A stretch of DNA of 64,000 bases, from assembly GCF_003018255.1 (NCBI RefSeq), contig NZ_CP027440.1; one strand, 5' to 3'. The translations under genes and the position numbers were made by a program. Source of the DNA: Escherichia coli (GTDB lineage: Bacteria; Pseudomonadota; Gammaproteobacteria; Enterobacterales; Enterobacteriaceae). Below are positions 1,308-23,698 of this stretch, in pieces. Position 1 is the stretch's first letter. Each line of letters begins with the position of its first letter. The notes below the pieces were generated by a model. That model was not told the origin of the DNA and ran no database searches. It saw nothing but the letters and a program-made list of their open reading frames with translations.

Positions 1308-2296
1308 TTTTTGCGAGACTCCTGAATTAACAAGACGATAAGGTAAATACCGCCGAGGCTGACGGTAACGACGCCAACCGGAAGTTGATACGGCATAAAC
1401 AGTTGTTGGGCGCAGAGATCGGCCGCCAGCAGTAACAACGCCCCGCACAGCGCCGCCTGGGTCAGCCCCCAGCGAGCGGTGCCGCTAATGCGTCGGGCAA
1501 TGTGCGGCGCGACTAAAGCAATAAAGGAAATCGGCCCGGCAAGCGCTGTTGCCGCAGCGGTAAGCACCACTGCAACCAGCATCATTAACAGACGCGAACG
1601 TTCGACGCTGACGCCCAGCGCACACGCGGTATCATCGCCCATTTCCAGCAAGCGCATCCGGCGTACCAGTAAGGCGGCGGCAATTAGCATCAATATAATG
1701 ATGGGTGCGGAAGGCGAGGTTTTTGCCCACGTCAGGCCGTTGAGCGATCCGGCATTCCACAAACCTGCTGTTAGCGCCGTTTCTAAAGACGCTTTCAGCA
1801 ACAGCCAGGTATTAAAGGCCACCAGCATGGCGCGAACGCCGATGCCGATAATAATCAACCGAAAGGTGTCGATGCCGTTACGCCAGGCGAGCAGCCAGAC
1901 CAGCAGCGAGGTGACAATACCCCCCGCCATTGCTGCCAGCGCGATAGCCGTCAGATCCTGACCAAACAGCACCATCGCCACCAGTACGCCGCTCCATGCC
2001 CCGGTGTTAAAGCCCATTACGTCAGGGCTGCCGAGCGGGTTACGCATCAGCGACTGAAAAATCGCGCCGCTGACGCCCAGCGCCGCGCCAATCAACAGCG
2101 CCATCAGCACGCGTGGTAAACGCCATTCGGTGACCACCATCGTCATACTGCGCGGCGCATCGCCCATCAGCGCGGCGAATACCTGCGAGGTTTCCAGCGT
2201 GATGGCACCGCTGCGTAATCCCCAGATACCTGCAACCACACAGGCGGAAACCAGCAGCAAACAGGTGATAATTAATCGGCGAGAGACGTAAATCAT
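1304..2296 (-). CDS. fepG: Ferric enterobactin ABC transporter permease
   Basis: 330-aa polytopic membrane ORF; 4-nt overlap with fepC start; FecCD-type permease. Confidence 0.93.
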   Translation of the reverse strand: MIYVSRRLIITCLLLVSACVVAGIWGLRSGAITLETSQVFAALMGDAPRSMTMVVTEWRLPRVLMALLIGAALGVSGAIFQSLMRNPLGSPDVMGFNTGAWSGVLVAMVLFGQDLTAIALAAMAGGIVTSLLVWLLAWRNGIDTFRLIIIGIGVRAMLVAFNTWLLLKASLETALTAGLWNAGSLNGLTWAKTSPSAPIIILMLIAAALLVRRMRLLEMGDDTACALGVSVERSRLLMMLVAVVLTAAATALAGPISFIALVAPHIARRISGTARWGLTQAALCGALLLLAADLCAQQLFMPYQLPVGVVTVSLGGIYLIVLLIQESRKK

Positions 2297-3297
2297 GCGC
2301 CACCTCGCGTTTTACGTCGCACGAGGAAGATCAGCACCGGTGCACCAATAAACGCACTGACCACGGAAACTCGCAGTTCGCCGGGCACAATCACCCGCCC
2401 GATGATATCGGCAAACAGCAGCAGGGCAGGGGTGGCAAGTAGCGTGACGGGCAGCGACCAGCGATGATCTGCTCCAACCAACCAACGCGCCATATGCGGC
2501 ATCATCAGGCCAATAAAGGCAATCGGGCCAACTACCGCCGTCGCACTACCACAAAGCACGGTAATCGCCAGCAGACCAATCAACTGTGTGCGCGCCACGC
2601 GGCTGCCCAGCGCTGTCGCGGTGTCACTGCCGAGGCTTAAACTGTTCAGCGCGCGGCTCAGTAATAGCGCGGTTGCTCCGGCGATCAGCACCGGGATCAG
2701 CACAACTTTTAAGGTATATAGATTGCGAATATCCAGCGAACCGGCTTGCCAGAAACGCAGTTGATCGTAGACGTCAGGATTAAGCAGGGCGATGCCGCTG
2801 GTCAGCCCTTCCAGCACCGCCGCCAGCGCCACGCCCGCCAGGGTTAAACGCACCGGACTTAACTGCCCGCCGCCCTGGCTGCCGGTAAAGGCAACAATCA
2901 ACGAGGCCACCAGCGCCCCGGCGAAGGCCATCGCCAGTTGTTCCTGCGCGGATGAGTAACCAAACAGCGCCGCACCCAGCACAATGGCAAAGCTGGCTCC
3001 GGCGTTTACGCCAAGCAAGCCGGGGTCGGCAAGTGGGTTTCGGGTGAGGGTTTGCATTAACGCCCCGGCAAGCCCAAGCGCGCCGCCTGCCAGTAAACCG
3101 GCAAGGGTGCGCGGCAGCCGCGCGTCGAGCACGATGGTGCAGTCGGCGCTCTGGCAGGTGCCGGAGAGGGCCTCCAGCACTACGGAAGCGGGGAGTGATT
3201 TTGCCCCAATGAGCAGGCTTAATGCCGTCGCGATAATCAGTAATAACAGCAATCCGGGCACGGCAATGGCGCGTGTCACGGCAACAGAACCAGACAT
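2293..3297 (-). CDS. fepD: Ferric enterobactin ABC transporter permease
   Basis: Track ORF 338 aa (start 3309); recalled FepD starts MSGSVAVTRAIAV (334 aa), giving start 3297; 4-nt overlap with fepG; alternative start 3309 not excluded. Confidence 0.9.
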   Translation of the reverse strand: MSGSVAVTRAIAVPGLLLLLIIATALSLLIGAKSLPASVVLEALSGTCQSADCTIVLDARLPRTLAGLLAGGALGLAGALMQTLTRNPLADPGLLGVNAGASFAIVLGAALFGYSSAQEQLAMAFAGALVASLIVAFTGSQGGGQLSPVRLTLAGVALAAVLEGLTSGIALLNPDVYDQLRFWQAGSLDIRNLYTLKVVLIPVLIAGATALLLSRALNSLSLGSDTATALGSRVARTQLIGLLAITVLCGSATAVVGPIAFIGLMMPHMARWLVGADHRWSLPVTLLATPALLLFADIIGRVIVPGELRVSVVSAFIGAPVLIFLVRRKTRGGA

Positions 3298-22273: not shown

Positions 22274-22702
22274 TTAACGCACAACCAGCACCGGCAAATT
22301 GGCGTGGCGGATCACGCTCGAGGCGTTAGAACCCAACAGATGAGTTGAAATTGATGGGTTACGCGAACCAATCACTACTACATCTGCATCAAGTTCTTTC
22401 GCTAACTCGTTAACTTCATCCCGCACACTACCAAAACGGACATGTTGCTTAATGCGGGAAGGATCGATGGTGAAGTGGCTGACCATCGTTTGCAGACGTT
22501 CTTCTGCTTCATGTTGCAGATGCTCTTCAAAACGACGTACATCAGCGGCAAAACGGTGCAGGCTCAGGCTGGCTGACCCCGGTAGTACGTGAAGTAGATG
22601 AATAACTCCGTCATCCTGGGCGAGGAATTCAGCGTGGCGAATCGCTTTGTCGCTCAATTCCATTTCGAAAACATCCACTGGCATGATGATTGTTTTGTAC
22701 AT
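22274..22702 (-). CDS. uspG: Universal stress protein G
   Basis: 142-aa product from [11 protein letters not shown]; track ORF extends 11 codons upstream. Confidence 0.92.
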
Positions 22703-22826
22703 AAGCATTCTCTCCTTGTTTTTGCATGTATGCATAACAGCACATTATTGGTTATGAATCTATAATTTGCGAGGCTGATTTGATCTGAATTTGCTATTGA
22801 GCTGGAAAATAAATAAAAACCAGGCG

Positions 22827-22916
22827 CTACCAGCGTTGTTCAAGGTATAGCACTGCAGCAACAATAATTGCTGCTATGAATATATAAAATGCAGTGATAC
22901 CGAGAGCTTCGCTCAT
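22827..22916 (-). CDS. Candidate 29-aa small hydrophobic (single-TM) protein, unannotated
   Basis: ATG..TAG ORF translating to MSEALGITAFYIFIAAIIVAAVLYLEQRW; below the 60-aa track cut-off; weak SD; coordinates +/-1 nt; no homology check possible. Confidence 0.3.
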   Translation of the reverse strand: MSEALGITAFYIFIAAIIVAAVLYLEQRW

Positions 22917-23058
22917 ATGAGGTTCCGCAGATGAATAGCCAGTTCAGATTAGAATGCTGCGCTTAAGAGCAAAATGATAAATCTGGTTGATATTTGAGCG
23001 GAAAGAGGATGCGAGTGCATCCTCTGGGCAAAGCGAGTTATCGCTTGTGCAGATGGGA

Positions 23059-23469
23059 TTAAAGCAGGTAGTCGCCAGCAGCTTCTGGCTGGTATTCGAG
23101 TTCCAGCACTTCAAGGTGGGTTGCAACGCCGCCCGGAAGTTCCCAGTGAATGGAATCGCCAACGCGCAGCCCCAGCAGTGCGGCACCTACCGGAGCCATA
23201 ACGGAAAGCTGAGTATTGCTGTCGGTCATTTTTGCCGGATACACCAGCGTGCGCACACGCACTTCGCCATCGCTAAGATTGCGGAATTTAACCCGGCTGT
23301 TCATTGTCACCACGTCGTGTGGCATCTCTTCTGGCGAACACATTTGGGCGCGATCCAACTCTGCGTTTAACGCGTCGGCGATTGGCAAACCAGCATAGGC
23401 GGGTTGCTCCAGCAGAATATCGATGCGTTCGGCATCCAGGTCGTTAATGATGATAGTTGGTCTGGACAT
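23059..23469 (-). CDS. rnk: Regulator of nucleoside diphosphate kinase (GreA/GreB-like)
   Basis: 136-aa ORF; matches recalled Rnk. Confidence 0.92.
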
Positions 23470-23698
23470 TTTTACTCCATGTCGTCGGTACTGCGAGTGT
23501 CGCAGATAAACATACCCAAAAGAAAACCCTCACCGTCAGGCGGCGAGGGTTTAACTCACATGATGATACTGACTGTTGCTCACTCTTTGAAGTGATTTGC
23601 GTCACATTCAGGGAATTCCTCAATGTAGCGCATTATGTATAAATCTTAATCGTCATGGTTTATGGAAGACGAATTAGCGTGTTTTGTAAATCAGAGGA

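Follow-up and report, generated by a model that had tools for sequence, protein, structure and literature searches.

A divergent haplotype of the small membrane protein gene yldA between rnk and uspG in Escherichia coli, and its relationship to YoaI

The rnk–yldA–uspG locus

The window, that is, the whole stretch of 64 000 nucleotides of an Escherichia coli contig that was analysed, contains a short open reading frame (ORF) on the minus strand at 22827–22916, which runs from an ATG start codon through 29 codons to a TAG stop codon, and specifies the 29-residue peptide MSEALGITAFYIFIAAIIVAAVLYLEQRW, as read from both the ORF list and the sequence itself. The surrounding region is that of E. coli ahpF, uspG, rnk and rna. 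Two genes on the same strand delimit the spacer in which it lies: rnk (23059–23469, minus strand), the upstream neighbour, which is constant in every lineage, and uspG (22274–22702, minus strand), the co-directional downstream neighbour, which begins 124 nt after the stop codon of the ORF. A first-pass annotation, made from the sequence alone, had described the position, strand, start and stop codons and peptide in these same terms, and its location in the uspG–rnk spacer, ∼140 nt past rnk, corresponds to a measured gap of 142 nt between the rnk stop codon and the ATG. The Shine–Dalgarno (SD) sequence, which had been given as a weak GGA, is indeed weak: it reads GGAA at 22923–22926 (minus strand), 6 nt upstream of the ATG, and is invariant in the six lineage-A sequences (lineage A being that of the allele in the window). 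The same-strand order of rnk and the ORF, here identified as yldA (see below), recurs with a spacing of ∼130–140 nt in every locus read, these being from E. albertii, Escherichia sp., two Citrobacter, K-12, and the metagenomic loci L009, L011 and L013 (set L003–L007, L009, L011 and L013).

Two observations concern the flanking genes. Upstream of rnk, the Rfam family RF01771, the enterobacterial rnk leader, is matched over its full length at 23515–23623 (minus strand; 124.9 bits, E = 1e-24), and this match overlaps a terminator-like hairpin at 23524–23552. The mechanical ORF of uspG spans 22274–22735 (minus strand; 153 aa), with an upstream ATG at 22735; the annotated start at 22702 (142 aa), which has a strong AAGGAGA SD, is conserved in Citrobacter.

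Identity of the ORF as yldA

The ORF had been put forward as unannotated, a label that holds only for a gene track with a 60-aa cut-off: in NZ_CP029164, RefSeq/PGAP names an identical ORF yldA (WP_001287361.1, 'small membrane protein YldA'). The peptide scores 59 bits against the NCBIfam equivalog model for YldA, NF041476, for which the cutoff is 45, and residues 1–29 align to profile positions 1–29. Against the Pfam YldA-like family, PF23689.1, it scores 22.9 bits over residues 1–27 (E = 9e-5), which is under the gathering threshold of 27; K-12 YldA reaches 73.6 bits on the same model, and this version of the family appears to be weighted to the K-12 lineage. At least 1000 contigs carry the exact sequence of the window peptide under the name YldA, and the same 90% cluster holds near-identical members from E. 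coli, E. marmotae, E. albertii and unclassified Escherichia. The gene is, therefore, already catalogued, having been named, modelled and annotated; we designate the coding sequence at 22827–22916 the lineage-A allele of yldA on the combined basis of the ORF list, RefSeq and NCBIfam.

Synthesis of the protein has been demonstrated for the K-12 allele, to which the window-type allele is 52% identical: K-12 YldA (MAEAFYILIGFLIMAAIIVMAVLYLENHS) is one of 36 small proteins detected by VanOrsdel 2018 (PMC6001520), where YldA-SPA was visualized by immunoblotting of LB cultures of MG1655 carrying a chromosomal SPA tag. In a study of the anaerobic NaF transcriptome, yldA is present in the clustered gene table, apparently before the 'Downregulated genes' heading (PMC10100675). 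Neither this paper nor that listing the convergent excludons of MG1655 (PMC12288877; see below) addresses YldA function, and YldA is not mentioned in the main text of a low-Mg2+ small-protein study.

Coding constraint and conservation

The pattern of substitution is that of a protein-coding sequence. There are six synonymous and no nonsynonymous changes between the window yldA and that of E. albertii, and dN/dS values of 0.12–0.17 were obtained against two Citrobacter species (overall range 0–0.2); across six lineage-A sequences, the variable columns are distributed 4/5/17 over the three codon positions. Window and Citrobacter are 76% identical within the ORF, a figure that falls to 61% for the 5′ flanking sequence and to 58% for the 3′ flanking sequence, the latter not being conserved. 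The frame, length, start and stop of yldA are kept across genera. Conservation of the frame with synonymous bias in related genomes, the check that the first-pass annotation had proposed, thus gave a clearly positive result.

An exhaustive profile search of 1.84 billion representative proteins, the alignment for which was led by a 33-aa database entry (P0028), returned 52 matches at E ≤ 1e-3, many of them exactly 29 aa long, with the family consensus M.E.L.I.L.FL...AIIV.AVLYLE[RQNK][HR]W. This search corrects a strict peptide-pattern scan of genome contigs, which recovered five loci only and underestimated the spread of the family. In all 15 divergent members, each of 29 codons, M1, E3, A16, A21, V22, L23, L25 and E26 are invariant, and the window peptide has all eight of these residues; by contrast with the C-terminal positions among them, the N-terminal half of the helix is free to vary. 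We consider it very likely that 22827–22916 is a genuine yldA gene, the product of which is a small membrane protein. The first reading is borne out to this extent: a real small-protein gene was recognizable from the sequence alone.

The rnk–yldA spacer

Two hairpins are predicted by folding of the minus strand between rnk and yldA. The first (23028–23050) directly follows the rnk stop codon. The second, the rnk 3′ hairpin (23004–23025), consists of a 9-bp stem (AGAGGAUGC/GCAUCCUCU) closed by a 4-nt loop; the hairpin is followed by UUU only. It had been described as terminator-like; the stem and loop are real, but the T-run is too short and a consensus scan makes no terminator call. The hairpin is probably a leaky terminator or a 3′-end stabilizer between rnk and yldA, and it may be more than a terminator. 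Because the U-tract comprises only three residues and no terminator is called, production of yldA mRNA by read-through from rnk is plausible.

The stem of this hairpin (GAGGATGC/GCATCCTC) is invariant in eight of the eight lineages examined, the loops and flanks being different. In an alignment of six sequences, likewise, the stem is constant and the loop varies. It is invariant rather than covarying, even though the flanking spacers are otherwise at shuffle-level identity. We also considered the palindrome as a repeated operator-like motif, and rejected this, as it is unique in the window.

Closer to yldA, the spacer contains a conserved non-coding block, AAATATCAACCAGATTTATCATT (22973–22995, minus strand; consensus AAATATCAACCArATTTATCATT), which is near-invariant from E. 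coli to Citrobacter within surroundings that are ∼61% identical. It is confined to lineage A and is missing from the K-12-type spacer. The block includes a −10-like TATCAT that is not accompanied by a −35 element, and a consensus scan of the rnk–yldA spacer found no sigma-70 promoter at threshold. Between yldA and uspG, no terminator is recognizable by consensus scan or by folding. Transcription of yldA would most likely arise from read-through of the U-poor rnk hairpin, or else start at a weak promoter within the conserved block, and in the window haplotype it may run on into uspG.

The predicted fold of the window leader is indistinguishable from those of shuffled sequences (z −0.54), whereas in the K-12 leader both the SD and the AUG are predicted to be paired (z −1.9). 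For lineage A, RNAalifold pairs CGCUCA (∼22992–22997, after the rnk hairpin) with UGAGCG (22910–22915, overlapping the yldA start codon); the Citrobacter counterpart, CAGUUA/UGGCUG, is compensatory, although this amounts to one independent lineage comparison only, and in the single-sequence fold another anti-SD pairing is favoured. A helix that would sequester the SD, UUCCGC/GCGGAA, was discarded as a candidate: it is seen in the single-sequence fold only, RNAalifold picks another helix, and the leader fold is not above shuffles.

Two haplotypes in E. coli

Alignment to K-12 BW25113 delimits a haplotype-variable segment at 22705–23001, which comprises the uspG upstream region, yldA and the yldA leader. 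To the right of this segment, rnk is identical to that of K-12 at 410 of 411 nt, and the rnk 3′ hairpin is also identical; leftwards, the alignment ends from ∼23001, and the start codon of uspG marks the left boundary. The K-12 gene order is uspG (leftward), ybdR (rightward), yldA (leftward) and rnk (leftward), with ∼1.6 kb in the variable interval; the BW25113 stretch to compare with 22334–23001 is 1373–3000 of the corresponding locus (L002). The uspG gene is itself mosaic relative to K-12: its overall identity is 92.8%, but falls to 80% in a block at 22334–22393. The K-12 and window alleles of yldA share 55% identity at the DNA level and 52% at the protein level.

The form seen in the window, i.e. 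without ybdR, is present in 1815 of 5422 complete E. coli genomes (∼33%), as judged by a megablast search of a set of 5,426 with 22650–23150; K-12-type genomes, including BW25113 and O157:H7, match this query from 22998 rightwards only. Architectures with and without ybdR are both found outside Escherichia too. Identity between the 5′ leaders of the K-12 and window forms is 0.53 (shuffled sequences give 0.49 ± 0.03), whereas across genera the K-12 leader is 0.66 identical to that of a C. koseri-like locus (L010), and the window leader is 0.67 identical to that of Citrobacter R56. The window allele of yldA is 76% identical to that of Citrobacter sp. R56, to which it is closer than to that of K-12. 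Since the leaders are near shuffle level within E. coli and yet more similar to those of other genera, we infer that two deeply divergent inter-genus lineages of the rnk–yldA unit coexist in E. coli.

Roughly one-third of complete E. coli genomes, together with E. albertii, E. marmotae and the cryptic clades, have a YldA that shares just over half of its residues with the K-12 protein, preceded by another leader and set among other neighbours, whereas the experimental knowledge of YldA all comes from the K-12 allele.

A 4-kb metagenome scaffold in ENA (L009) contains, at 2703–2906, a 67-aa ORF (P0031) in which both yldA lineages are fused: the first 19 codons of a window-type yldA are followed by a K-12-type leader and a complete K-12 yldA, and then by ybdR. 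The junction is found in none of the 5,426 complete E. coli genomes and on this one metagenome scaffold only. We considered P0031 as a tandem-duplication intermediate between the haplotypes and rejected it on these grounds; it is either a rare recombinant or a mis-assembly (assembly chimera).

Relationship to YoaI

With the NCBIfam model for YoaI, NF041475, the score of the window peptide is 30 bits (E 4e-7), which is below the cutoff of 45. E. coli YoaI and the window YldA can be aligned ungapped at an offset of +5, such that they share their C-terminal end and agree at 11 of 29 residues. With an HMM built from 15 YldA sequences, YoaI scores 14.7 bits, a value that was reached by none of 20,000 full shuffles; shuffling of the hydrophobic core of YoaI alone reached it in 22 of 20,000 trials, and part of the similarity could, therefore, reflect constraints common to short transmembrane (TM) helices. 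The YldA profile also matches P0055, a Cedecea protein to which NCBI gives the name YoaI, and P0061, both of which have a precomputed PF23689 assignment. Each of their genes is flanked by a DUF441 gene on one side and a convergent tRNA_edit gene on the other, which corresponds to the yeaL/yeaK location of yoaI in E. coli: yoaI is found between yeaK and yeaL in K-12, L014 and L015, whereas the window ORF is found between rnk and uspG. A homology search seeded with the 45-aa Cedecea YoaI returned that sequence alone. Given that syntenic YoaI orthologues match the YldA profile and carry PF23689, and taking into account the scores with the YoaI model and the YldA HMM, the comparisons indicate that YldA and YoaI are paralogous, and that the window YldA is a paralogue of YoaI and not a member of that family.

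In YoaI, Ser26, Val27 and Glu31 are invariant, and Glu31 has been placed in the cytoplasmic tail; its replacement in the E31A and E31Q variants abolishes both EnvZ binding and omrB activation, and overexpression of YoaI prolongs the lag phase (Vellappan et al., PMC11429745). These three residues align with Ala21, Val22 and Glu26 of YldA, all of which are invariant in YldA, the serine being replaced by alanine.

The two genes also resemble one another in their K-12 surroundings: yoaI (10336–10440 of L008) abuts the convergent yeaK with a 0-nt gap, and yldA (2835–2924 of L002) abuts the convergent ybdR with a 3-nt gap, and both ybdR–yldA and yeaK–yoaI are among the listed convergent excludons of MG1655 (PMC12288877). 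In the window haplotype, yldA is without a convergent arrangement.

Protein anatomy and proposed mechanism

Residues 4–25 of YldA form an uncharged stretch of 22 residues, for which the best 19-residue window has a mean Kyte–Doolittle hydropathy of 2.67. The protein is essentially one TM helix (residues 4–25), with a short acidic N-terminus (Glu3) and the tail Glu26-Gln-Arg-Trp; the earlier description of a small membrane protein with a single TM helix and a charged C-terminal tail is in keeping with this. YldA would insert into the inner membrane with its N-terminus out and its C-terminus in, because most tails in the family, of the form LE[RK][HR]W, fit the positive-inside rule, and Glu31 of YoaI is cytoplasmic. 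In this orientation, it may bind to a larger protein of the inner membrane by way of the invariant C-terminal half-helix, in the cytoplasmic leaflet, and the juxtamembrane glutamate (Ala16, Ala21, Val22, Leu23, Leu25 and Glu26). YoaI, which binds and activates the sensor kinase EnvZ through Glu31, would serve as the model.

By this analogy, YldA may cross the membrane once and modulate a larger membrane protein, an interpretation for which we regard the odds as about even. A sensor kinase would be the leading candidate for the putative partner, although the kinase is a tentative choice, appreciably less secure than the modulator role itself. The paralogy with YoaI nevertheless gives YldA a testable hypothesis, namely, Glu26-dependent binding of a sensor kinase. 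More speculatively, and in our view rather improbably, E. coli might keep two ancient yldA haplotypes that differ in partner specificity or regulation, YldA and YoaI both being kinase-tuning peptides with a juxtamembrane glutamate. If this were true, strains with the window form would differ from K-12 in how an input to membrane signalling is wired.

Alternative explanations

The alternative that survives best is that YldA is an accessory or stabilizing subunit of a transporter or enzyme complex, in the manner of CydX, KdpF or AcrZ, rather than a signalling modulator. Small membrane proteins have several target classes, as reviewed in PMC12648545. The anatomy of such subunits is alike, in that they have a single TM helix and fewer than 50 residues, and the one-sided conservation of the YldA helix denotes a specific protein contact that would fit either class of partner. 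However, the genes for small proteins of this kind usually belong to the operon of the complex in question, whereas the constant neighbour of yldA is rnk, which encodes a soluble RNA-polymerase-binding factor, and no gene for a membrane complex is adjacent; furthermore, YoaI, the only characterized homologue, targets a sensor kinase. On balance, we judge a subunit role to be unlikely, but it is the most serious competitor.

The first-pass annotation had likened the peptide to type I toxins, in which case it would depolarize the membrane and its translation would be blocked by an antisense RNA and by mRNA structure. Its size and shape fit (29 aa and one TM helix), and the dimensions of TisB are similar. 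The weak SD is also compatible with such a system, as are the predicted pairing of the SD and AUG in the K-12 leader, the potential base-pairing of the lineage-A CGCUCA to the start codon, for which Citrobacter has compensatory changes, and the prolonged lag phase on overexpression of the paralogue YoaI. Set against this, Rfam gave no RNA at the ORF or opposite to it with E ≤ 1, bar a chance sub-threshold snoRNA match, and the opposite strand over the ORF is without a promoter- or terminator-like site; an antisense RNA antitoxin was thus found neither with Rfam nor in the consensus signal scan, although a novel sRNA that does not have consensus signals would escape both. The window leader folds no better than its shuffles, and yldA is single-copy and syntenic, being neither patchy nor multicopy in its distribution. 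Moreover, expression from the native locus in LB is sufficient for the K-12 protein to accumulate, the conservation is focused on specific residues of one half-helix and the glutamate rather than on overall hydrophobicity, and the homology is to a kinase-modulating peptide, YoaI. A type I toxin is, therefore, not supported by these data, and we consider it very unlikely.

Marginally less probable again is a regulatory upstream ORF, of which the translation and not the peptide would matter, for instance through the coupling of rnk read-through to uspG expression. In its favour, yldA of the window shares its strand with both rnk and uspG, which flank it; the hairpin before it is U-poor, and no terminator follows it. 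However, purifying selection on the amino-acid sequence is strong, a stable tagged protein is made from the K-12 allele, and in both the K-12 form and L011, uspG is separated from yldA by ybdR, which converges on yldA, and the 29 codons are still retained.

The weakest reading, a chance ORF in a non-coding spacer, which had been allowed for at the outset, has a negligible probability: it would fit the weak SD and the dozens of ORFs of 20–50 aa in the same 3 kb, which place a length of 29 aa, taken alone, within chance expectation, but it is rejected because yldA keeps its frame, length, start and stop from genus to genus, with synonymous bias (no nonsynonymous change relative to E. albertii) and the cutoff of the curated YldA model is exceeded, and the K-12 orthologue is translated (PMC6001520).

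Comparison with known systems

Of the systems with which the window YldA can be compared, the closest is K-12 YldA (UniProt YLDA_ECOLI), a b-numbered small protein that belongs to the same NF041476 family, is likewise 29 aa long, and is encoded ∼140 nt after rnk and beyond the same hairpin; the invariant Met1, Glu3, Ala16, Ala21, Val22, Leu23, Leu25 and Glu26 are present in both. They differ in the tail, which is EQRW in the window protein and ENHS in K-12 YldA, in what lies downstream, namely, the convergent ybdR in K-12 and uspG on the same strand in the window, and in the leader, that of K-12 yldA being unrelated to that of the window, with identity at shuffle level.

YoaI similarly has a single TM helix, and Glu3, Val22 and Glu26 of YldA coincide with its Glu8, Val27 and Glu31. 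It is, however, 34 aa long as a result of five extra N-terminal residues, and is encoded at the yeaK/yeaL locus, whereas YldA has 29 residues and is encoded at the rnk locus; PhoB regulation and the binding and activation of EnvZ are features of YoaI.

The type I toxins TisB, IbsC, ShoB, DinQ, ZorO and Hok have in common with YldA their length and a hydrophobic single helix. Unlike them, YldA has no antisense partner that could be found and is not associated with repeats or multiple copies, and the K-12 protein is detectable without stress.

The interpretation that we prefer, in which YldA would modulate a larger membrane protein as a single-pass peptide, has its counterpart in the small kinase modulators, such as MgrB, which acts on PhoQ (PMC12648545): these are single-pass inner-membrane peptides that contact a larger membrane protein, and by analogy they provide a working model for YldA.
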